From: an uncultured Victivallales bacterium
GTDB lineage: Bacteria; Verrucomicrobiota; Kiritimatiellia; UBA8416
Direction of reading: 5' to 3'
Assembly: GCA_964576795.1 (NCBI GenBank)
Contig: CAZNWT010000026.1
Location: 1-46,177, forward strand
Length of the DNA: 46,177 bases
Shown: positions 3,377-46,177 of the stretch, piece after piece
Layout of the letters: each line of letters begins with the position of its first letter
Numbering within the stretch: the first letter of the stretch is position 1
Made by a program: the position numbers and the translations under genes
The notes under the pieces: generated by a model
What the model was told of the DNA's origin: nothing
The model's input: the letters and a program-made list of their open reading frames with translations, nothing else
Database searches by the model: none

Positions 3377-4024
3377 ATGACAGAGTGGTGGCACAATCTT
3401 TCGTCCATCAACAGAGGGTTCTTCTGCGCAGCTGCTTTTTTCAGTGTCTTCTTTCTCTGGCAGATGCTCGCAGCCCTGTTGGGCCTTGGCGACGATGATG
3501 GCGGCGATGACATTTCCGACAGTGGTGACGTTGACTCTGATATGGATGATTTCGATTCAGGGGCTGACACCGACTCGTCTGCAACCATCGTTGCATTTAA
3601 ACTCCTCAGCATTCGCGCGATTATCACATTTTGCACGCTTTTCTCCTGGGGAAGCGCACTCTACCTCAATCAGGGGGATGGGCTCACACGTTCAATGGGG
3701 ATCTCGGCAATTTGGGGACTAGCCGGAATGGCTAGCGTCGCCTTGGTTCTATCACTCCTTCCAAAACTGGCCCACACAGGAACCAAGCGCATCAGCTCAT
3801 CGCTCGGAGCCGAGGGCACCGTCTATCTGGACATTCCAGAGGGGGGGCTAGGCGAAATCAGAGTTTCCGTCAGCAACGTCATCTCCTACGTAAAGGCGAG
3901 AGACGTTTCCGGCAAAGCACTCAAAACAGGAACCCCCGTCGTTGTCCGCCGTATTGTCGATCAAACAACCGTTGCCGTAGAATCAATATCACGTTCTAAC
4001 ACAGAAATAGGAGGTACAGAGTGA
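3377..4024 (+). CDS. NfeD-like membrane protein (YuaF-type), partner of flotillin
   Basis: It has an N-terminal TM region, an acidic Asp/Gly-rich linker, and a C-terminal beta-rich (OB-fold-like) segment 'VSVSNVISYVKARDVSGKALKTGTPVVVRRIVDQ'. Its stop overlaps the flotillin start (ATGA at 4021), matching the classic nfeD-floT operon arrangement. Confidence 0.6.
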   Translation: MTEWWHNLSSINRGFFCAAAFFSVFFLWQMLAALLGLGDDDGGDDISDSGDVDSDMDDFDSGADTDSSATIVAFKLLSIRAIITFCTLFSWGSALYLNQGDGLTRSMGISAIWGLAGMASVALVLSLLPKLAHTGTKRISSSLGAEGTVYLDIPEGGLGEIRVSVSNVISYVKARDVSGKALKTGTPVVVRRIVDQTTVAVESISRSNTEIGGTE

Positions 4025-5508
4025 TCCATTCCATGCTACCCGTCATCATTGCACAAGCCGCGCGCACATCGCGTTCAGGGGCGCCCGTCGGCCTAATTCT
4101 ATCTATGATTCTGGCGGCAGCCGTTATCGTGCTTTTTATCAGTTTTGCCAAGCGCTACAAACGGTGTCCTTCAAATCGAATTCTCGTAATTTATGGCAAG
4201 ACCAATCAAGGTGCAGCACGCTGTATTCATGGCGGAGCCGCTTTTATATGGCCGCTGATTCAAGCCTACGATTTTCTGGATCTTGAGCCATTCGTGGTTC
4301 CGATTGATCTCAAAAATGCGCTCTCGTTTGAAAACATCCGAGTCACTGTACCCACCACGGTGACCGCCGCCGTCTCAACCACAGCAGGCATTATGCAAAA
4401 TGCCGCAATCCGCTTGCTGGGCCTCACAGCCAAAGAGATTCAGAATCAGGCGCAGGACATTATTCTCGGACAAATGCGTGCCGTGATTGCCACAATGAAA
4501 ATTGAGGAAATCAATCAAGATCGACAGGCTTTTCTGGGAAAGGTCAACGGGGCAGTCAGTGGCGAACTCGAAAAGATCGGACTATCCCTAATCAACGTCA
4601 ATATCCGTGATATTGAAGATGAGTCCGGCTACATTGTCGCCCTCGGCCGCCGCGCCGCTGCCGAAGCCATCAACCAAGCCAACATTGACGTCGCCGAGCA
4701 AGAAAAAACTGGTAAGACGGGCGTCGCAGAGCGAAATCGCGACCAGCGTGTTGCGGTCGCTGCAGCCAATGCCGATGCCGAAATTGGTGAAGCCACAGCG
4801 GACAAAGAGCGTCGCACAAAATCGGCAGCACTCGATGCAGGTGCTGTGGAAGGTGAAACTCAAGCTGATGCAGAAAAAGCGGCCTTCCGAGCCAACCAGA
4901 GCGTTGCTGAACAGAGCGCCCGTAATCGGTCCGAATCCGCCTCACGCGAAGCCGATGGTGCGATTCGCGTAGCGCAGGAAGTAGCCGAGAAGCTTGCAGA
5001 AGAAGCACGAGCAGAGCGCGAGCAGGCTCGTCTGAATGCCGAGATCGTGGTTCCCGCTAATGCTGAACGCGAAAAGGTAGTGATTGCAGCCAATGCCCAG
5101 AAGGAAAAGTCTATACGCATTGCGGAAGGTGAAGCCGCAGCAACGCTGGCACGCATGACAGCAGAGGCCAAAGGTGTTCAAGCCATTTTGGATGGAAAAG
5201 CCGAAGGCTATGAACAGCTCGTGGGTGCATGCTCATCAGCAGAACAGGCGGCCTCTCTACTGTTGATTGAGAAACTGCAAGAAATAGCCCGAATTCAGGC
5301 GCAAGCCATTCAGGATCTTCCCATTGACAAGATCTTTGTATGGGATACAGGCGGCGAGAACCAAGGCATGGCCAATCTGGGACAGCGGATGATGGGAGCG
5401 CTCCCCCCGATGCAGGAACTTGCAAAGCAAATTGGCCTTGATCTTCCCGAGTATCTCGGAAAAGCCACGGGCAAAGAGACAAAGCCAACCGAATCACCAA
5501 CGGCATAG
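4021..5508 (+). CDS. floT: Flotillin-like SPFH/band-7 domain protein (FloT/YuaG-type)
   Basis: The 495 aa comprise an N-terminal membrane anchor, an SPFH domain, and a long Ala/Glu/Arg/Lys-rich coiled-coil (EA-repeat) region, which is the typical flotillin architecture. Confidence 0.85.
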   Translation: MIHSMLPVIIAQAARTSRSGAPVGLILSMILAAAVIVLFISFAKRYKRCPSNRILVIYGKTNQGAARCIHGGAAFIWPLIQAYDFLDLEPFVVPIDLKNALSFENIRVTVPTTVTAAVSTTAGIMQNAAIRLLGLTAKEIQNQAQDIILGQMRAVIATMKIEEINQDRQAFLGKVNGAVSGELEKIGLSLINVNIRDIEDESGYIVALGRRAAAEAINQANIDVAEQEKTGKTGVAERNRDQRVAVAAANADAEIGEATADKERRTKSAALDAGAVEGETQADAEKAAFRANQSVAEQSARNRSESASREADGAIRVAQEVAEKLAEEARAEREQARLNAEIVVPANAEREKVVIAANAQKEKSIRIAEGEAAATLARMTAEAKGVQAILDGKAEGYEQLVGACSSAEQAASLLLIEKLQEIARIQAQAIQDLPIDKIFVWDTGGENQGMANLGQRMMGALPPMQELAKQIGLDLPEYLGKATGKETKPTESPTA

Positions 5509-5525
5509 ATTCACACACGGGAGTC

Positions 5526-6821
5526 ATGACTACACCTGTAGATAATGGGACTCGGGCGGCATATTTGGCCAATGTACTAAGCATTGCCAAAATAGATGAC
5601 GGCGTCGCACCCGACGAATCTCGTGTGTTGCGTTCGATCATTCATCGTATCGGCGCAACACAGCAGGATTTGGTGGCAGCAGGAAAGCTTCTATCCTCTG
5701 GCCGCTTCAATATGGACGTTCCCGATTCGCCCAGTTTGCGAATGGATAACCTGCAAGACATGGTCATGGTTGCACTCGCAGATGGCTCTGTATCGTCGCG
5801 AGAAAGTGCCCCCATTGAAGTGGTCGCAGAGGCCATGAATTATTCACAAGCCGACATTGATCTCGCGGTGAGGCGTGCCAAGCTTGCCCTACAAAAGTTG
5901 CAGAACGAACCCTCTCCCCTGCCCCTTGAAGTCAAGGCCAAGCCCACCACACAAACACCACCCCGAACTCACACCTCGGACTCAAACAGGAAGCACTCGC
6001 GGGAACAGCACGCTCGACCTCAAGAAAGACGCCAATCTTGGCGACAGGATGCCACCGACACAAAACCTGAATCACCACCAGAGATAATACAGTCCCAATC
6101 TGTGCATGCAAAAGAGCAACCGCCCACACGTCCAAAGGCGCAAACCCCCGAATCAATCACAGAACCGCCCCCCACCATACTCGTTCAGGAAACGGCACCG
6201 CCCCCACCCCCGAAAGAAGAAACCGAAAAGAGACCCAACACCTCGACTCGGGCACAAAACTGCGCGGCGGATCGCGCGAAAAGCGATACACCAGACACCT
6301 ACTGCTTCGGGGCCACCGAGGGGCCTCTGAACCCTTGGGGCTGTCGGCTAAGCAAAATGGCGTGGGTGCGCGATGCTGCATGGATGCGCTTGGGGCATTT
6401 CCGCGACGATGTCACGTTCATCTTCGATAAGCGTGCCATAGCCCAACAGCTTGCATCCAATCTTGCTGATGTTCTGGATTGTCCTTACCTGAACACCAAT
6501 TTCACTGAAGCCGCTTTTGACTGCCTTCCCACCCGAGTCAGCGTAGGTGAACGTTGGCACTACCAGTACGCAGAAACATCAGATGCCGACTCAACCACGG
6601 TGAAAGAGACTCATTACGTACACGGGTGTGCCGTTACATCAACAGCCACGGTTGAAGGTGTTGATCCTGTGGGATCGCGAGATGCCCTGAAAATTGTCCG
6701 CAAAGCTACCAAAGCAGTAAAGTATCAAGACGGCGGCATCGACAAGATCGTGAATTTCATAAATGCCTTCGACCGTCCTCGCAATGTAACGAGTCCTTAC
6801 GGGACCCCTCGTCCATTCTAA
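5526..6821 (+). CDS. Hypothetical protein with an N-terminal TerB-like domain, a Pro-rich linker and a C-terminal domain of unknown function
   Basis: The N-terminal ~130 aa ('AYLANVLSIAKIDDGVAPDESRVLRSIIHRIGATQQDL...VMVALADGSVSSRESAPIEVVAEAM') resemble a TerB/DjlA-N-type helical domain. It is followed by a proline-rich low-complexity stretch and a ~190-aa Cys-containing C-terminal domain. It lies immediately downstream of flotillin. Confidence 0.5.
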   Translation: MTTPVDNGTRAAYLANVLSIAKIDDGVAPDESRVLRSIIHRIGATQQDLVAAGKLLSSGRFNMDVPDSPSLRMDNLQDMVMVALADGSVSSRESAPIEVVAEAMNYSQADIDLAVRRAKLALQKLQNEPSPLPLEVKAKPTTQTPPRTHTSDSNRKHSREQHARPQERRQSWRQDATDTKPESPPEIIQSQSVHAKEQPPTRPKAQTPESITEPPPTILVQETAPPPPPKEETEKRPNTSTRAQNCAADRAKSDTPDTYCFGATEGPLNPWGCRLSKMAWVRDAAWMRLGHFRDDVTFIFDKRAIAQQLASNLADVLDCPYLNTNFTEAAFDCLPTRVSVGERWHYQYAETSDADSTTVKETHYVHGCAVTSTATVEGVDPVGSRDALKIVRKATKAVKYQDGGIDKIVNFINAFDRPRNVTSPYGTPRPF

Positions 6822-10278: not shown

Positions 10279-11100
10279 TCACCTTGCATTTAAATGTTCC
10301 CAGCAGGACGCAGGCGAAGGGCTGTCGTATCGGCAGGCGTGCAATTCGCCCACTCCGGCTACACAGAAGACGCAATAGCCAGGCGCCGCCAAGCACGGAG
10401 ACGCAAGACACAGCAACCAGAGGCAAATATATCCGATAAAAACAGGCCGGATCCGGGTGAGGAACAACACTCGAACTCGGGGCCAGAATACCGACCAGAG
10501 TCCAATGAACCCCACTGGGGACGACAGAAAAGCAAGACCACCGAGCCAACCCCCAACGCCAGAATCACAAAACCGCCCACGCCCAGGTTTGCAACAGATG
10601 AAGCGAGAGGCCACCCAAGATCCAAAGGCAGAGAGCAGGGAACAAACACGCGTCGCAGATAATGAAAAATAACCCCCGCTTCCGTCACGGCATAATATAG
10701 CGGCGACGTCTCACTCTGCATGATAGATTGAGCAGAGCCCTCTCCCCACAGTTTCATGACCACATCCGCTAACCAGCCCCCCCCCCCCCCATGTCAACGC
10801 CATCCCGAGGTGGAGGCCCCAGCGCTCCTTAAACTGCACCTTCAGAGACCCCAATATAAAAAACCGGTTATAGAAAAAGCAATACGGGGGCCGTGATCAT
10901 GACTTCCTTGGTACCCATCCCAACCCCACACGCCAGCCCCCCTCCCCCCATACCATGCTATGCACCGCCAGCGCGACCGCGCGACAGAGCCACGAATGAG
11001 GCACCATACTCTGAGCAGATACAACATCCCCATGAGCAGCTCGCCGTGTTGCCATATATACGTGACTAATGCAGTCTACATGGGATGAACCGCCCAAAGC
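10279..11100 (-). pseudogene. Probable degraded membrane-protein gene (or low-quality sequence) with long poly-C tracts
   Basis: Several overlapping hydrophobic minus-strand ORFs (10244-10549, 10279-10614, 10359-10763, 10842-11033, 10897-11097) are broken across all three frames. There is a C14 run at 10777-10790 and C6TC6 at 10937-10949. The plus strand has strong A/C skew. Confidence 0.35.
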
Positions 11101-11347: not shown

Positions 11348-13960
11348 TCACCCACGCATGCGACTTGTGCCAACGACAAGCCGAATAGCATCCAATCGCA
11401 AGCGGGCTCCACTAATGGCATCCGCAAGCGCTGAAACCTGCGTTTCGAGTGCCATAACTTCCTCCGGGCGAACATGGTCATTCACCAACTGTAGGTCGCG
11501 CAAACGCGCAATTTCTGCACCAAGAGCAGTCTGCATATTCTCCAACGCCCCATTCTGAATAACAGAAAGTCGCGATTCGGCTTCAACACGAGAGGCAGAC
11601 ACCATTGGAGGTAGAATATCGAGCCGCAGCCGGTCGTTATCACTCACCCACCAAGACTCACCATCACCATCCGTATTCCACTCTGCCGCGACGCTTTCGC
11701 ACCTGTCATTCACCTGCACCAATAGCGGAGTCGCTGGCAAAAAACGCTCAATCTCAATTTGCTGCGCAGAAACGGCTTCAAGGACATAGACCGCCTGAAG
11801 CAATACGCCAGTGTTGGTTGTCGATTTCGCAATAGCACACACACCCCGGTCAGATCCCAAAATCAAATCCATTGCCCCTTGAACCATAGGATGATCCCAA
11901 CTCAACAATGTTATCGTTGGCCGACTTAGCGCATGCGCACGATCATAGGTCACCCGCATCGCATCGCCTTTTCGAGGAAGGGGAAACTCATCACTGAAGA
12001 GGAGATCTGCACTCAGGAGATAATCACGCTCTTCAAGCGGTTCGGCATCCACCCCGAACTGCTCAAAAACATCGCACATATAGGTCTCTAGCGTCCGATC
12101 CGCTTCCGCCGCCTGAATAGCTGTCACCAATGATGCTGCCACAGCAGGACGGCATGAGTTCATCTCAAGAAGCAAGTTACGTCCCGCCTCAACGCGTTGA
12201 CACAACGCGCGATGCGCGGACCGCGTCTCTGTAATGAGGGCTTCGTCAACATTTGACAGACGCTCAGCAAACTGAAGCCACATGGCATACCCCCCAACAA
12301 GCGGACGAGAAAAGGCACCCAACCCCTCATGCATCCACTGCACACGCCCCGCTTCAGGCGTTCCACGCAAATAGGGAATATGGATATGAATGTCATGCTT
12401 CTGGCCAATGCGATCCAACCGGCCAATACGCTGCTCAACGAGCTCAGGATCTTCAGGAACATCCATTAACACCAGATGACTGGCGAACTGGTAATTTCGC
12501 CCCTCTCCCCCCACCCCTGAGGTAATGAGAATACGCGCGCCCTCCAGCTCCGCAAACCAAGCCGCCTGACGATCGCACTGTATCAGGGGTAGATTTTCAT
12601 GGAAACAGGCAATATCAATGCCGGTGAGTACACGAAGCTTCGCTTCTAAAGCGAGCACATCTTCGGCACTCTCACAAATCACAAGAAACTTCGTTTTAGG
12701 CCGCCGTCGCAGCAATCCAGCCAACCAGGCAACCCGAGGATCAGAATCGTCCCCGGCGCTCGGATCCAACGGAACAAGGTGGGGCTTACGATTGGGAAAC
12801 CCTGCAATAGCCATGCGTGAATTACGAAACATCACACGTCCCGGGCCATGGCGATCCAACATTTTTTCGAGTTCTGCTTCCCGCCCTTGCGCAATCACGG
12901 AAACGGCACGCTTTGCCACTTCAGTATAGGTTTCGTGTTCTGCAACAAACTGATCAAAGCTCGGGTAGCGATGGGGATCAAGCAATCTCAACCGTGCAAA
13001 ATGACTTTCCAGGCCAGTCTGCTCTGGACTCGCTGTCAAAAGAAGGAGACTGGGGGTGCAAGTGGAAAACTGCTCTACCAGACAATACTCTGGACTAGCC
13101 CCCTCTGCGGACCATCGTAGATGATGCGCTTCATCAACAATAAGGATGTCCCAACCTGCAGATAGAGCCTGCTGCATGCGAACCGTGTCGGAAACCAAAA
13201 ACTCTAAACTGCATAGGACAAATTGCTCTTCAAGAAATGGATTTTGCGACCCCGATTCTGTCTCCGCATCACAGCGCTGCTTGTCAAATACGCGAAATGA
13301 GAGATTAAATCGACGCAGCAACTCAACAAACCACTGATGCACCAAAGGTTCAGGAAGCAAGATTAACACGCGATCTGCTTTTTCACATACGACGAGTTGA
13401 TGCAAAATCAAGCAGGCTTCAATTGTTTTTCCTAGCCCCACCTCATCTGCCAGCAGAATCCGGGGAATCTGTCGTCGGCTGACCTCGTGAGCAATGTAGA
13501 GCTGATGCGGCAGGAGCTCAATCCGGGCACCTGTAAAGCCCCGGACGGGTGACAGACGATTTGCGTGGCGATGCTGAAGCGTAGCAAGTCGAAGTGTGAA
13601 AAGTGCCGACGGGTCGACGTGTCCAGCCAACAGACGCGCCTCTGGATCTTCAACGCTCAGATTGTCTGCCAAAGCCGACTCGGGGAGATGCTGGGCATCT
13701 TCTCCCTCATAAGAGAGTAAGCCACCCGATTCATGCACATGAAGCACAATAAACGCGTTCCCCTCACACCCTCGAACGGAATCACCGGGTGCAAACCGAG
13801 CTCGCTTCAGGGGGGCGCTCTCAATGGCATACGTACGCGTCTCTCCGCTGCAGGGAAAGAGCACCTGAACGTGATATCGGTCAACTTGAACGACAAGTCC
13901 AAGCCCTAGGCTGGGTTCGGCCAAACTCACCCAACGCTGCCCTGATACCAGTGACTTCAT
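11348..13960 (-). CDS. rapA: RNA polymerase-associated SNF2-family ATPase RapA (HepA)
   Basis: It is collinear with E. coli RapA. The N-terminal 'GQRWVS..E..LGLG.VV.VD' matches, as do the SNF2 motifs ('LLPHQL.IAHEV', 'LLADEVGLGKTIEA', 'DILIVDEAHHLRW') and the C-terminal helicase motifs ('LITSGVGGEGRNYQFASH', 'QRIGRLDRIGQKHDIHIHIPY'). Confidence 0.9.
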   Translation of the reverse strand: MKSLVSGQRWVSLAEPSLGLGLVVQVDRYHVQVLFPCSGETRTYAIESAPLKRARFAPGDSVRGCEGNAFIVLHVHESGGLLSYEGEDAQHLPESALADNLSVEDPEARLLAGHVDPSALFTLRLATLQHRHANRLSPVRGFTGARIELLPHQLYIAHEVSRRQIPRILLADEVGLGKTIEACLILHQLVVCEKADRVLILLPEPLVHQWFVELLRRFNLSFRVFDKQRCDAETESGSQNPFLEEQFVLCSLEFLVSDTVRMQQALSAGWDILIVDEAHHLRWSAEGASPEYCLVEQFSTCTPSLLLLTASPEQTGLESHFARLRLLDPHRYPSFDQFVAEHETYTEVAKRAVSVIAQGREAELEKMLDRHGPGRVMFRNSRMAIAGFPNRKPHLVPLDPSAGDDSDPRVAWLAGLLRRRPKTKFLVICESAEDVLALEAKLRVLTGIDIACFHENLPLIQCDRQAAWFAELEGARILITSGVGGEGRNYQFASHLVLMDVPEDPELVEQRIGRLDRIGQKHDIHIHIPYLRGTPEAGRVQWMHEGLGAFSRPLVGGYAMWLQFAERLSNVDEALITETRSAHRALCQRVEAGRNLLLEMNSCRPAVAASLVTAIQAAEADRTLETYMCDVFEQFGVDAEPLEERDYLLSADLLFSDEFPLPRKGDAMRVTYDRAHALSRPTITLLSWDHPMVQGAMDLILGSDRGVCAIAKSTTNTGVLLQAVYVLEAVSAQQIEIERFLPATPLLVQVNDRCESVAAEWNTDGDGESWWVSDNDRLRLDILPPMVSASRVEAESRLSVIQNGALENMQTALGAEIARLRDLQLVNDHVRPEEVMALETQVSALADAISGARLRLDAIRLVVGTSRMRG

Positions 13961-42496: not shown

Positions 42497-43984
42497 ATGA
42501 CGACTCAGACGAAGAGACCCAATATCATCATCATGTACGCAGATGACCTTGGTTTCGGTGATGTAGGGTGTTACGGAGCGACAAGCATCTCTACCCCTAA
42601 CATCGATCGACTTGCCGCCGAGGGGGTGACGTTTCATCGGGGTTATGCCACTGCGGCGACATGCACTCCCTCACGCTATAGCTTGCTCACTGGCTCCTAT
42701 CCATGGCGGAACCCATGCGCTACCATTCTTCCGGGGGACGCACCTCTGATCATTGATTCACAAATGCCAACACTGCCTGGCATGCTTCAGCATGCCGGTT
42801 ATAGAACAGGCGTTGTTGGCAAATGGCACCTGGGCCTTGGACAAAACGATCTCAATTGGAATCAAGAGATAAGCGCCACACCTAATGACGTGGGCTTCGA
42901 TTATTCCTATATTATGGCGGCGACTAATGACCGCGTACCGTGTGTATACGTGGAAAACCGCAAGGTTGTTGGGCTTGATCCAGAAGATCCCATTGAGGTG
43001 ACGTACGATTGGGATAAGGCAGATCCGAGTCAGCCCACAGGAAGACACAACCCGGAACTGCTGAAGATGAAGTATAGCCACGGTCATGATGCATCAATTG
43101 TTAATGGTGTCAGTCGTATCGGCCATATGCGCGGAGGTCGGGCCGCTCTCTGGGATGACGAATCCATGGCTGAAGTCTTTGCCGAAAAAGCAGTTGGCTT
43201 TGTTACCGAGAACAAGGACCAGCCATTCTTCCTTTATTATGCCTTCCACCAACCCCACGTCCCCCGTATACCGGGGCCACGCTTCAAAGGTGTCACCCCC
43301 CATGGGCCACGCGGCGATGTAATTGTCGAAATGGACTGGTGTGTTGGCGAAATGTTGGATGCACTGGAGCGATTAGGAATCAAGGAAAATACAATCGTCA
43401 TTTTCTCCAGCGACAACGGCCCCGTGCTTGATGATGGGTATGACGATAAGGCAGAAGCATTGAATGACTCTCACCATGCAGCGGGGCCGCTACGTGGTGG
43501 AAAATACAGCATGTTCGATGGGGGAACCCGCGTCCCATTCCTTGTCAGCTGGCCCGGAACGGTCACTCCAGGGGAGTCGAATGCACTTGTTAGTCATGTT
43601 GACTTTTATGCATCCTTTGCGGCCATGACGAGTGAAGAAATACACGACAATATAGCTCCAGATAGCATAAACATTCTTGATGCATTACTCGGCAGGAGCA
43701 GCAAGGGACGGGACGAATTGGTCGTAGAAGGCACCCGGGGAAAGACCGTCCTACAAAAGAACGAGTGGGTCTTTATCCCGCCGCATGATGGTCCCGCTTT
43801 GAATGTGGACACGAATATAGAGCTGGGCAACTCCACGAAGCCTCAGCTTTATGATCTCTCGCAAGATATCGGGCAGATCAGCAACCTTGCAGCAGAGAAT
43901 GTGGATATTGCCAGCAAGATGTCTGCTCGACTCAATGACATTTCTCAATCACAGCGATCTGCTGGTGGACCGGATCCAGTGTAA
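42497..43984 (+). CDS. Sulfatase (arylsulfatase family, formylglycine-dependent)
   Basis: 'IIIMYADDLGFGDVGCYG' and the fGly signature 'CTPSRYSLLTG', plus 'GKWHLG' and 'SDNGP'. Confidence 0.9.
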   Translation: MTTQTKRPNIIIMYADDLGFGDVGCYGATSISTPNIDRLAAEGVTFHRGYATAATCTPSRYSLLTGSYPWRNPCATILPGDAPLIIDSQMPTLPGMLQHAGYRTGVVGKWHLGLGQNDLNWNQEISATPNDVGFDYSYIMAATNDRVPCVYVENRKVVGLDPEDPIEVTYDWDKADPSQPTGRHNPELLKMKYSHGHDASIVNGVSRIGHMRGGRAALWDDESMAEVFAEKAVGFVTENKDQPFFLYYAFHQPHVPRIPGPRFKGVTPHGPRGDVIVEMDWCVGEMLDALERLGIKENTIVIFSSDNGPVLDDGYDDKAEALNDSHHAAGPLRGGKYSMFDGGTRVPFLVSWPGTVTPGESNALVSHVDFYASFAAMTSEEIHDNIAPDSINILDALLGRSSKGRDELVVEGTRGKTVLQKNEWVFIPPHDGPALNVDTNIELGNSTKPQLYDLSQDIGQISNLAAENVDIASKMSARLNDISQSQRSAGGPDPV

Positions 43985-44164
43985 TTTCCAGGGGAGCATC
44001 ACCCGTAATGTGCTTGTGTAACGTAGCCGGAACCTAATGATGTATCCCGCATTTACGCCGACAGGGCAAAGCCCGCACTTTCGAATGCACGGCAAAGCCT
44101 AATGGATGACCCCCAAAGCTTTCTGAACACTCTCTCCTCTCTCCCTCTCTACCCTCTCACTCAA

Positions 44165-44313
44165 AGTCCCACCCCGGACGGCGCCGACCGCACGGCGCGA
44201 CCGCCGTTGTTGTTGTTCCGATCCGCGTTCACGTTGGCAGCGTTGTTGCGGTCCGATGCGCGCGCGTACACGCTCGCATTGTTCCAATTGCCGCCGCGAA
44301 ACCCGGCGCCGTC
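44165..44313 (-). repeat. DGR template repeat (TR); boundaries approximate because no VR copy is available
   Basis: The minus-strand reading frame encodes '...GFRGGNWNNASVYARASDRNNAANVNADRNNNNGGRAV...', which is the CLec-type DGR template signature. There are 11 Asn codons in 28 codons, including AAC AAC AAC AAC at 44206-44217 (minus strand). It lies immediately 3' of avd on the same strand. Confidence 0.75.
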
Positions 44314-44504
44314 TTGCGCCTGTGTCCCGACCCCCGGCCTCCGCCGGGGGCGCATTGCCGCGCCCCGGAATGGCCCGAAGGCCGTACCGAGCCGCCGCTT
44401 CCGTATTCTCTCGTCCAACCGGACGAGACGGACCACAGGCCGGGTGGGTACACCCGCGCCTCGGCGGCCGAACCTTGATCCGACCGCAGCGAAAACACGG
44501 GCTT

Positions 44505-44849
44505 CTACTGCTCCACACTCTTCTGCCAACCGCCCAGCATCTTGCCGATTTCCGTCAGACTCTTCGCGCAGAAGCACCACGATCCCCGGCTCATGCACCG
44601 CGCGTCGCGCGCGAGCCGAAGCAGATACCGCAACTGGTCCAGCGTCAGACTCACGCGGCTGAGCGTCAACGCTTTCGCTTCGCCCTTCGCCATCAGGGCC
44701 GCGGCCACCAGATCGTCCTGAACATCCAGACTCTTGCCCATCAGACGTTCTCCCAGCAGAAACCGTTGGTCGCGCGGGAACTTCCCGACCTTATGCAACA
44801 GCCACACGTTGACCTCGTACATCTTCTCCACGATCGGCGGCATGTCCAT
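44505..44849 (-). CDS. avd: DGR accessory variability determinant (Avd), a four-helix-bundle protein; start may be MYEVN at 44822
   Basis: The 114-aa basic helical protein 'KFPRDQRFLLGERLMGKSLDV...LDQLRYLLRLARD' matches the four-helix-bundle Avd/TIGR02436-like family. Its 5' end overlaps the RT 3' end. Confidence 0.7.
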   Translation of the reverse strand: MDMPPIVEKMYEVNVWLLHKVGKFPRDQRFLLGERLMGKSLDVQDDLVAAALMAKGEAKALTLSRVSLTLDQLRYLLRLARDARCMSRGSWCFCAKSLTEIGKMLGGWQKSVEQ

Positions 44850-46059
44850 CCGAGCGCCCTCCCTTCTCCGATACGCGGCTCGCGGCCCGACGCCCCTTCA
44901 TCCCCGGCAGACCGTACTGGTTGATGATGGGGAAGCGATCATACAGGCATTTCCGTATCCGATACGTATCCCCGTTCAGCGCGTGTGCGTGGAAGCTCTG
45001 CGTGGACTGCCTGATCTCCCGCAGTAAAGTCGCCTGACCTTCCAGATCCGGCCACAGCGCATGATACTCCCTCGTGTAGCGGTTCATCCGGCGAATGAAC
45101 CGCGTCACGCTCATCTTCTTGAGCTTCCGGCGCTCCGGGAACAGGCGAAACCCGAGAAAGCCGATGCCGCGTCGCACGGGCACCGGTCCGCCATCAGGGT
45201 GCAACTCCAGCCGCAACCTGCCTCTCGCAAATTCGCGAATACCCCTCTCCCACTCGCGCACGGGTTCCTTTTCGTCCGCAAACAGCAGCATGTCGTCCAT
45301 GTAGCGCACATAGTACCGGACCTTCAGTGTGTGCTTCACGTACTGGTCCAGTTCGTTCAGATACAGGTTCGCGAAAAACTGGCTCGTCAGGTTCCCCAAT
45401 GGCAATCCCCGTATCCGCCCGCCGCATGCGACGTCCGGAGCCAGATCCAACCCCCCCAGCGCCATCTCCAACTGCATTTGCTCCGTGGGCCCCATGCTCG
45501 TCACGCTCGCCCCCGCGCCGGCCTTGCGTGCCAGATAGTCGCTCGAGTCCACGATCCGTTCCAGCAGCCCCAGCGCCCGTTCGTCAGCCACGTACCGGCG
45601 GATCAACCCCTTCAATATCTCGTGATCGATCGTCGAGAAGTAGCTCTTAACATCCAGATGCAACCCGTAGCGGCAAGCCCTCAAGAACCCGTGCGCCCGG
45701 TCCAGCGCCCGGTGCGTGCCCTTCCCAAGTCTGCACGCATAACTGTCGTGAATGAACATGCGGTCCAGCCGCGGCGCAACCACGTCATGCACCGCATGGT
45801 GGAGCACGCGATCCCTGACCGTCCCCGCCGCGATCACCCGCACCTTCGGGTCCCACACCGTGAACAGCCGATATTTCCCATGCCGATAGCGCCCCGCCGC
45901 CAACTGCTCATGAAGCTTGAAGACCTCCTTCTCAAGATCGAACTTGAACCGGGCCCCCTCGCCACGAAAACGCCGACCATGAGCCAACGTCGCCTCCGCC
46001 GCGCGGAACAGGTTCTCCACGCTCACAATCTCGTCATACACATGGCACAGCGGCTTCAT
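44791..46059 (-). CDS. Diversity-generating retroelement reverse transcriptase
   Basis: The RT motifs are in order: 'RLFTVWDPKVRVIAA' (motifs 1-2), 'SYACRLGKGTHRAL', 'LHLDVKSYFSTIDH', the DGR-specific motif 4 'GLPLGNLTSQFFANLYLNELD' (SQ rather than the QG..SP of retron/group II RTs), 'YVRYMDDMLLF' (YMDD) and 'GIGFLGFRL'. It is collinear with Bordetella phage BPP-1 bRT. Confidence 0.88.
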   Translation of the reverse strand: MKPLCHVYDEIVSVENLFRAAEATLAHGRRFRGEGARFKFDLEKEVFKLHEQLAAGRYRHGKYRLFTVWDPKVRVIAAGTVRDRVLHHAVHDVVAPRLDRMFIHDSYACRLGKGTHRALDRAHGFLRACRYGLHLDVKSYFSTIDHEILKGLIRRYVADERALGLLERIVDSSDYLARKAGAGASVTSMGPTEQMQLEMALGGLDLAPDVACGGRIRGLPLGNLTSQFFANLYLNELDQYVKHTLKVRYYVRYMDDMLLFADEKEPVREWERGIREFARGRLRLELHPDGGPVPVRRGIGFLGFRLFPERRKLKKMSVTRFIRRMNRYTREYHALWPDLEGQATLLREIRQSTQSFHAHALNGDTYRIRKCLYDRFPIINQYGLPGMKGRRAASRVSEKGGRSDGHAADRGEDVRGQRVAVA

Positions 46060-46072
46060 CCAAAAATCGCCT

Positions 46073-46177
<105 letters not shown>

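Follow-up and report, generated by a model that had tools for sequence, protein, structure and literature searches.

A conserved RNA upstream of the template repeat as a probable cis-acting element of a diversity-generating retroelement

Introduction

Where does a diversity-generating retroelement (DGR) carry the cis-acting RNA from which copying of its template repeat (TR) is started? The question is raised by a DGR near the end of a stretch of 46,177 nucleotides from an uncultured Victivallales bacterium (contig CAZNWT010000026.1 of assembly GCA_964576795.1), the whole of which is referred to here as the window. The initial annotation of this DNA had placed a TR on the minus strand and suggested that a homopurine tract immediately 3' of it could be the functional equivalent of Sp, the region located just 3' of TR in BPP-1. 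The TR itself proved to be routine, and checking the tract exposed a conserved RNA on the opposite side of the template, in the spacer between avd and TR. We consider this to be a probable cis-acting RNA, in an arrangement that appears to be new for DGR RNAs, and the purine tract to be real but most likely functionless.

The DGR RNA of BPP-1, which extends from the 3' end of avd through TR and Sp, has been defined biochemically and by cryo-electron microscopy (cryo-EM) (Handa et al. 2018, PMC6182149; bioRxiv 10.1101/2023.10.23.563531). Sp occupies 140 nt downstream of TR and its first element is an Avd-binding stem-loop, after which a primer strand, Sp47-56, pairs with TR117-129, the priming nucleotide being A56 followed by a required G57, and the first template nucleotide is G117 of the 134-nt TR (Handa et al.). 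Next come the 'cPRT Stop' strand, whose partner is the end of avd, then a small tetraloop hairpin and adenosines and, last, a single-stranded 'thumb ring' followed by a long bRT-binding stem-loop (Handa et al.). A survey of such RNA elements, extending over 40 nt upstream and 100 nt downstream of TR, covered 278 DGRs and detected the elements in 207 (Handa et al., bioRxiv 10.1101/2023.10.23.563531).

The cassette at the end of the window belongs to a complete DGR with the order target gene, containing the variable region (VR), reverse transcriptase (RT) gene, avd, a 193-nt spacer and TR, all of it probably transcribed from the minus strand. Downstream of avd on this strand lies a G+C-rich, non-coding stretch which terminates in a segment rich in Asn codons.

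Conserved RNA in the avd-TR spacer

Loci were fetched for relatives of the RT showing 57-82% amino acid sequence identity (L086, L050, L166-L169 and L171-L175). Every one of these RT genes lies within a target-RT-avd-TR cassette and, where enough of the contig is available, the complete order is target(VR)-RT-avd-spacer-TR. Ten loci, from the window and nine of the relatives, were aligned from the avd stop codon to 150 nt beyond TR. Both the spacer and TR are conserved, and the similarity then stops abruptly after ...GCGCCGUCCGGGGUGGG, the site of a GGGUGGG strand considered below. Mean pairwise identity is 0.69 for the spacer, 0.81 for TR and 0.55 for the 70 nt past the conserved end, as compared with 0.58 for the same 70 nt after shuffling.

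The spacer (44312..44504, minus strand), which is 70-85% identical in the nine relatives, is conserved and covaries as a structured RNA. RNAalifold predicted 95 base pairs for the ten sequences, 40 of them with compensatory changes, and, in a covariation test on 81 pairs, 94.4% of the alignment cells were paired, against 40-47% when the partners were slid by 1-3 columns. Pairs showing double changes numbered 35, compared with 9-14 when slid, and none of 500 shuffles attained the observed values for pairing and double changes. The minimum free energy (MFE) structure of the window RNA, folded as a single sequence, reproduces the consensus helices and was used for the helix coordinates given below; the spacer together with TR through to the GGGUGGG strand (44504..44166) yields a folding z of -4.75. 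With a covariance model built for the spacer (R1), the window obtains 179.8 bits.

The RNA does not correspond to a known Rfam family; a cmscan search of positions 43900-46177 at E <= 1 yielded only spurious matches on homopolymer junk. Moreover, when the covariance model was run against about 1.07 Mb of fetched loci only known family members were detected and the more distant clade B, introduced below, was not reached. A weak match (17.8 bits, E = 0.0065), probably due to chance, was seen between the TR and RT of an unrelated DGR (L099, 3829-4019), and 106 matches to a spacer motif in viral contigs included none that nhmmer identified as real.

Reading along the minus strand, the spacer opens directly after the avd stop codon with hairpin P1 (44452..44502), in which both partners have changed in 10 of the 21 pairs and which, judged by its position, is a candidate counterpart of the Avd-binding stem-loop. 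The strand CCCACCC follows and is treated in the next section as one side of helix 2. Helix 3 is formed by GCCUGUGGUCCG (44429..44440), pairing with 44329..44318, and CGGGACACAGGC (44318..44329), candidate strands a and b, respectively, of a stop duplex. It has 11 pairs, four of which show double changes, with 99% of cells paired, and its 3' strand ends about 6 nt upstream of TR, directly 5' of the start of TR/VR homology. Helix 3 encloses hairpin H4 (44428..44409), with 8 bp, four showing double changes, and a tetraloop; H4 is followed by an unpaired GA(G/A)AAUA segment, the two together covering 44399..44428, and the segment's G, A, A, A, U and A are invariant in the alignment. A long interrupted stem-loop, H5/H6 (44398..44357), and a hairpin, H7 (44351..44330), complete the spacer (44330..44398). 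Both were predicted by RNAalifold and in the MFE structure, and pairs with double changes in helices 5-7 amount to 8/10, 2/3 and 3/4, respectively; their position would correspond to that of the bRT-binding stem-loop of BPP-1. A stem joining the two ends of TR is also predicted and, with helices 2 and 3, it would form a three-way junction.

Conservation of the region could, in principle, reflect a protein-coding sequence, and an open reading frame (ORF) of 145 aa (44598..44161) does run from avd to the end of TR. However, the spacers of the relatives differ by indels of 1, 2, 4 and 29 nt, their substitutions are paired and compensatory, no family matches were found in Pfam or NCBIfam, and the reading frame inside TR was inherited from the target gene. 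The frame-breaking indels and the paired substitutions together rule out that the 145-aa ORF is conserved because it is coding, an explanation to which we assign next to no probability, and this agrees with the earlier view that the overlapping 145-aa and 139-aa ORFs are by-products of the sequence.

Long-range pairing with the end of the template

In both the single-sequence MFE structure and the consensus, the spacer strand CCCACCC (44448..44442) is base-paired to GGGUGGG (44174..44168), close to the 3' end of TR, and lies 275 nt upstream of its partner. It constitutes a candidate primer strand (44442..44448, minus strand) and is succeeded by an invariant GG (44441-44440), found in 10/10 members of the family, all ten of which also carry a G immediately 5' of the template-side strand. 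The latter feature (44168..44175, minus strand) consists of GGGUGGG and the predicted first template nucleotide, G 44175.

A more distant group of DGRs, clade B, was also informative. It comprises L005-L012 and L087-L093, from metagenome-assembled genomes (MAGs) of Omnitrophota, Planctomycetia, Elusimicrobia and Chloroflexi, and its RTs are 37-47% identical to that of the window. Helix 2 shows complementarity and covariation across 24 loci of the two clades. At least five variants retain complementarity, including ACCCACCC:GGGUGGG, CUCACCC:GGGUGAG and AGAGGUU:AACCUCU, together with AGGGGUC:GACCCCU, GGGGAAGUC:GACUUYYCC and AAGGAGU:ACUCCUU. Cognate duplexes have a mean energy of -12.5 kcal/mol, as compared with -8.2 kcal/mol for non-cognate combinations, and none of 5000 permutations was as good. 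The helix is present in the MFE structures of 19 of the 24 RNAs (270-400 nt) when folded as single sequences. In L173, the template strand of the helix lies beyond the end of VR homology, yet it is conserved; coding constraint, therefore, cannot account for conservation of this strand.

The purine-rich tract downstream of the template

The tract that drew attention to this locus extends over 44130..44162 on the minus strand, where 31 of its 33 nucleotides are purines. On the plus strand, 21 unbroken pyrimidines (44130-44150) are followed by positions up to 44162 that are interrupted by an A at 44151 and another at 44159, and the first five nucleotides of the tract (44158-44162) overlap the end of TR/VR homology. 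Thus, the string originally reported at 44131-44160 as a 30-nt GA-only tract is present, but it begins at 44130 and is not exclusively GA. It is the longest purine or pyrimidine run in the window, and first-order Markov simulations of the window generated a run of at least 21 in 1% of cases and at least 31/33 in 0.3%; the tract is, therefore, a real low-complexity sequence, modestly beyond chance. Other C-rich runs, a C14 and two 13-nt C/T runs, occur at 10777-10790, 10937-10949 and 12500-12512.

The suggestion that the homopurine tract substitutes for the BPP-1 Sp, either by supplying a priming adenosine or by forming a structure or triplex for cDNA initiation, has some initial appeal given that the region 3' of TR has this role in BPP-1, that the tract is adenosine-rich and rarer than expected by chance in the window, and that a few relatives are purine-rich at the same place. 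Nevertheless, the flank shows neither sequence nor structural conservation in the nine close relatives, the GA tract itself is absent from all of those aligned, and their 70-nt flanks fold no better than shuffled sequences (mean z = -0.48). No conserved RNA or stem-loop of the Avd-binding type was found directly downstream of TR in the window, where flank identity equals that of shuffled sequence, nor was there a primer strand complementary to the 3' end of TR, which in the BPP-1 type lies about 50 nt downstream of TR. The stem-loop, the TR-complementary strand and the stop strand are missing from the flank, and their candidate counterparts all lie upstream. Structure prediction detected no hairpin in the tract, about half of which is predicted to be unpaired in the window RNA. 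Nor does it show complementarity to TR or the upstream RNA beyond that of shuffles; pairing of the tract with the DGR RNA was rejected on finding that its best upstream duplex, at -21.8 kcal/mol, is weaker than those formed by shuffled tracts (-26.8 +/- 2.5 kcal/mol).

The comparison with characterised Sp regions pointed in the same direction. The tract carries none of the BPP-1 Sp elements, the first 30 nt of the BPP-1 Sp are not purine-rich (14/30) and, in clade B, the RT gene begins 25-100 nt after TR, as little as 25 nt being too short to accommodate a downstream Sp. The idea that the family is characterised by a flank rich in purines or poor in C was rejected; purines amount to 17.7-18.1/30 in the relatives' flanks and 16.4-16.6/30 in the next 30 nt (59-60% versus 55%), a difference that is too weak. 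The proposal that the tract is an Sp or priming equivalent was not, therefore, borne out for a flank that is non-conserved in nine relatives and has neither a pairing partner nor a consistent structure, and we regard it as very improbable.

Scarcely more probable, in our estimation, is that the tract acts as DNA, either as a mirror-like (CT)n sequence forming H-DNA or a triplex, or as an insertion scar at the cassette boundary, with potential effects on recombination, replication, or the convergent transcription of the DGR and a sulfatase gene. The tract, as the longest homopurine/homopyrimidine run in the window, is located at a jump in G+C content from about 52% to 63%, between convergent transcription units, and no intrinsic terminator was found after TR on the minus strand. 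Against this, relatives with other neighbours have no equivalent tract, and the other boundary of the cassette, where a flanking repeat would be sought, is off the contig.

A further possibility, that the tract derives by decay from a copy of the post-VR hairpin (see below), was rejected for L001, the sister contig of the window, where local alignment of the two flanks is no better than with shuffled sequences (p = 0.86); of the comparisons made, only L086 gave a hint of similarity (p = 0.03). In the absence of conservation, a pairing partner and a terminator, and with the hairpin-copy idea rejected, the tract is best considered a locus-specific low-complexity sequence, most likely a neutral trailer of the slippage type, bordering a cassette whose composition looks foreign. 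In L175 (about 4070-4180), tandem 9-nt repeats (GGCTGTRAG)n directly follow a strong hairpin located after TR.

Template repeat and variable region

Neither a second copy of TR nor a VR was found in the window by searching for exact and extended repeats or with an adenine-masked scan. An exact look-up of the RT protein led to a 48,269-bp ENA contig, L001, which represents the same locus and, from its position 2111 onward, has a sequence identical to that of the window (window position = 48183 - L001 position). Upstream from the RT, L001 carries a 494-aa target gene with a PF03781 FGE-sulfatase domain (C-type-lectin fold), according to its precomputed annotation, and the 3' end of this gene, the last 50 codons and stop codon, constitutes VR (L001 1924-2077). 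TR is located at L001 3872-4025, corresponding to 44311..44158 on the minus strand of the window, and comprises 154 nt with 29 adenines and 11 Asn codons.

TR and VR are 90% identical, with 15 mismatches over 154 nt, of which 14 occur at TR adenines (A>C 5, A>G 5, A>T 4). These adenine-site changes alter nine of the 11 Asn codons and one Asp codon, and are silent at one Ala position. The earlier inference of a DGR template on the minus strand, with some 11 codons open to adenine mutagenesis, was thereby substantiated once its VR had been located and the TR adenines counted against the substitutions, although its limits, given as 44313..44161, needed to be adjusted to those of the TR/VR homology. 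In the frame of the target gene, which is also that of the 145-aa ORF, the minus strand translates as ...GGNWNNASVYARASDRNNAANVNADRNNNNGGRAVRSAPSGVGL*, and the Asn codons include the block AAC AAC AAC AAC and seven more, as originally described. Adenine-specific TR/VR patterns were also found in the relatives L167, L169, L173 and L175.

The sole non-adenine difference, U in TR and C in VR, is at 44165 (minus strand; L001 4018), 8 nt from the end of TR, and is a difference of the IMH*/IMH type. It falls within the last 17 nt of TR, 3' of the copying start predicted below, and retrohoming would not, therefore, overwrite it. On L001, VR is followed by a hairpin, GCAGGGGGC-GTA-GCCCCCTGC, which is missing after TR and retained in the relatives; it is probably the target-recognition hairpin. 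A hairpin of the form CTTGGGGGTGCAGGGGGC-nn-GCCCCCTGC always follows VR, at L001 2078-2108 and at the same place in L086, L167, L169, L171 and L175. In at least three clade B loci, L007, L009 and L093, the 3' arm of the post-VR hairpin repeats the primer-like strand of the spacer (AACCTCT-CCATA-AGAGGTT in L007).

Clearly, with a DGR-type RT, Avd, adenine-specific TR/VR differences, a C-terminal VR in an FGE-sulfatase target, and an IMH-type difference and hairpin, the sequence at 44311..44158 is a genuine DGR TR and an ordinary example of its kind. On the plus strand, antisense to TR, a hairpin resembling a terminator (44192-44207) precedes TGTTGTTGTT, which is complementary to the AAC codons. 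It is directed towards the convergent sulfatase gene, and its occurrence is within chance expectation (three found, 1.6 expected). One of the relatives, L086, looks like a decaying DGR in which the spacer RNA is still kept; codon 9 of its RT gene is an in-frame TAG (4001-4030), and many of the differences between its TR and VR are not at adenines.

A proposed priming mechanism

In the mechanism that we envisage, CCCACCC:GGGUGGG would serve as the template:primer duplex. An RT-Avd complex on the spacer RNA would initiate the cDNA in cis at the nucleotide that ends this duplex on the spacer side (about 44442/44441), with G 44175, 17 nt from the end of TR, as first template nucleotide. The RT would then copy about 137 nt of TR, misincorporating at adenines, until copying stopped at helix 3, just upstream of TR, and the cDNA would replace VR. 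The last 17 nt of TR, with the only non-A difference, would stay uncopied, and the purine tract would lie 3' of the start site, outside both the copied region and the conserved RNA.

Several features of the TR/VR pairs bear on the proposed start site. The VR nucleotide that adjoins the duplex on its 5' side is a G in all loci for which a VR sequence is available and, in clade B, this duplex-adjacent nucleotide is an A in TR and a G in VR at all nine loci for which VR is available (L007, L009, L012, L087-L090, L092 and L093), a pattern which would fit an obligatory dC start like that at G117 of the BPP-1 TR. Moreover, where TR and VR of L001 and L167 differ at non-A positions, they do so 3' of the duplex, within the region predicted to stay uncopied. 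We consider it likely, therefore, that the locus is a complete DGR with a structured Sp equivalent upstream of TR, cis-priming from about 44442/44441 and a neutral purine trailer; within this reading we infer the site and chemistry of priming, the binding of proteins, the stop function of helix 3 and homology to the BPP-1 Sp from position, shape and covariation.

An alternative, which we consider unlikely, is that the spacer RNA is real and is not the primer donor. It could be a protein-binding scaffold, an element for stability or processing, or a regulator of avd and TR expression, with priming achieved in another way, for example from the 3'-OH of a nicked RNA elsewhere, from the target DNA, or from some short stretch downstream that lacks conservation. 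The evidence presented here covers structure and complementarity, and helix 2 could be a mere closing helix; moreover, Naorem et al. (2017) argued for priming from a nicked RNA 3'-OH in BPP-1. Cis-priming from the spacer is favoured over this alternative by four observations: the elements match those of the BPP-1 Sp one by one, in position and shape, once their order is rotated; an invariant G follows the helix-2 strand, similarly to the required G57 after A56 in Sp; the VR G occurs exactly at the duplex-adjacent nucleotide even where TR has an A; and the duplex is 17 nt from the end of TR, as in BPP-1.

A number of points weigh against the upstream-priming model, or soften it. Within the ten-member family, helix 2 shows a single covarying pair (CUCACCC:GGGUGAG), present in three possibly related loci, and the cross-clade support for this helix rests on a manual pairing of the window family with clade B, two groups that are not connected by the covariance model. 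Covariation inside TR (helices 8 and 9) is confounded by the VR coding constraint on the TR ends. RNAfold, applied to avd-TR-Sp of BPP-1 as a positive control, misses known duplexes including the template:primer, which makes folding evidence weak, and it is for this reason that we rely on covariation rather than folding energies. Fairly purine-rich sequences do follow TR in L167, L171, L088 and L089, consistent with a possible weak compositional preference. The window itself, as mentioned above, yielded no VR, and the target protein cluster, which was searched for population variants as a sign of activity, has a single member. Finally, although neither an upstream Sp nor a permuted DGR RNA was found in the literature searched, such an arrangement may have been described elsewhere.

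The cassette and its surroundings

The RT gene (44791..46059, minus strand) encodes 422 aa and was assigned to the DGR type from a Pfam RVT_1 match (E = 3.4e-13) together with its LPLGNLTSQFFANLYLNE motif, which was also used as the search pattern for DGR RTs. Relatives with this motif that were confirmed by tblastn, from metagenome and genome collections, numbered 591 and 595 and, where a TR/VR pair is detectable among the retrieved RT relatives, the locus is a DGR cassette. The accessory gene avd (44505..44849, minus strand; 114 aa) overlaps the 3' end of the RT gene. Its product matches Pfam bAvd (PF22296) with 51.4 bits, the cut-off being 40, and scores 78.3 bits against NCBIfam DivGenRetAVD, marginally below the cut-off of 80.

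The place of VR and the target gene, both present there in L001, is occupied in the window by homopolymer blocks (46070..46177). These last 108 bases consist of G16, C15, A15 and a long C run, and look like an artefact of assembly or processing. At the other end, at about 44000-44130, G+C content climbs from about 52% to 63% at the start of the DGR cassette, which looks compositionally foreign relative to the surrounding sulfatase and glycosidase genes. Two adjacent imperfect direct repeats of 26 nt (GGCTTTGCC...GCG), 73% identical, sit between the GA tract and the sulfatase stop codon (44048-44099; L001 4084-4135). The closest relatives of the RT are found in Lentisphaerae and Elusimicrobia MAGs. 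Proteins adjoining several of these DGRs contain GG[SG]YDG[YW]D repeats (L001 285-560; L050 about 1330-1400; L086 about 6650-6700), and that of L001 is encoded in a 91-aa ORF with a predicted signal peptide.

Comparison with known systems

The DGR of the window resembles that of BPP-1 in possessing an RT and Avd, and an adenine-specific transfer from TR to VR. In both, a GC-rich 3' end of TR pairs with a short RNA strand, copying starts, as predicted here, at a G 17 nt from the end of TR, a guanosine directly follows the primer strand and a duplex closes the 5' side of TR. A further resemblance lies in a small tetraloop hairpin with a GAA or A-rich single strand after it (hairpin and GAA together being Sp71-81 in BPP-1), followed by a long interrupted stem-loop. 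They differ in gene order, which is mtd-avd-TR-brt in BPP-1 and target-RT-avd-TR here, and in the location of these elements. In BPP-1 all except the avd strand lie in Sp, downstream of TR, whereas here they are found within the 193 nt upstream, in a rotated order, and the downstream flank is non-conserved and lacks detectable sequence similarity to Sp. The window RNA reads P1, primer-like strand, GG, helix-3 strand a, tetraloop hairpin, A-rich strand and long stem-loop, then helix-3 strand b, TR and the template strand. It may, thus, be described as a circular permutation of the BPP-1 DGR RNA, with elements corresponding by position and shape, which would place a functional Sp equivalent upstream of TR.

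Two other DGRs, L094 from a Chloroflexia MAG and L020, with RTs about 39% identical to that of the window, provide an informative contrast. They share with it Avd, the order RT-avd-TR, a primer strand complementary to the 3' end of TR, a stop duplex, a hairpin, an A-rich strand and a long stem-loop. However, their avd-TR spacer is only about 50 nt and all of the elements lie downstream of TR, as in BPP-1; the two loci show conservation of this downstream Sp, in which some 50 nt separate TR from the primer strand and the stop duplex covaries. An Sp downstream of TR in the window would, therefore, have been visible, and gene order evidently does not dictate the position of the RNA elements.

Clade B, on the other hand, has the order VR-avd-spacer-TR-RT, and its sequences are too diverged for the family covariance model, yet it resembles the window family in carrying a long avd-TR spacer (165-530 nt) which opens with a hairpin and contains an A-rich segment. 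A strand complementary to the last 7-10 nt of TR is followed at once by one that pairs just 5' of TR. The A in TR and G in VR at the duplex-adjacent nucleotide sets this clade apart. On balance, we lean slightly towards the view that the window family and clade B constitute a sizeable group of environmental DGRs sharing a circularly permuted DGR RNA, with the whole Sp machinery, including the primer donor, upstream of the template.

Such a layout is probably undescribed so far; the earlier survey, covering only 40 nt upstream and 100 nt downstream of TR, would have missed it, and it may account for some of the 71 DGRs, among the 278, in which downstream elements were not seen. If true, the annotation of DGRs cannot presume that the cis-acting RNA is downstream of TR, and minimal constructs for DGR mutagenesis would need the avd-TR spacer rather than the 3' flank. 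It would also constitute a natural test of the cryo-EM model, in which RNA elements position the template:primer duplex, since the same parts are connected differently.

The polypurine tract (PPT) of retroviruses and LTR retrotransposons is comparable to the window's tract as a purine-only run adjoining the end of a reverse-transcribed region; unlike the PPT, the tract here lies outside the region predicted to be copied and is absent from the relatives, and the RT shows no match to an RNase H domain. The topology predicted here is shared with the retron ncRNA (msr-msd), in which the template is preceded by the priming nucleotide. This nucleotide ends a duplex (a1/a2) that a 5' strand forms with the 3' end of the template region, and a G follows the 5' strand (PMC8867640). 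The system in the window is not itself a retron; its RT is of the DGR group, it has Avd and a TR/VR pair with adenine mutagenesis, nothing points to msDNA, the retron RT model of NCBIfam scores 33 bits against a cut-off of 235, and the cmscan of 43900-46177 found no Rfam retron family. Nevertheless, a permuted layout would give this DGR RNA a retron-like topology, in which the priming nucleotide precedes the template and a duplex reaches over a long range to the template's 3' end, and would provide a link between the priming topologies of DGRs and retrons.

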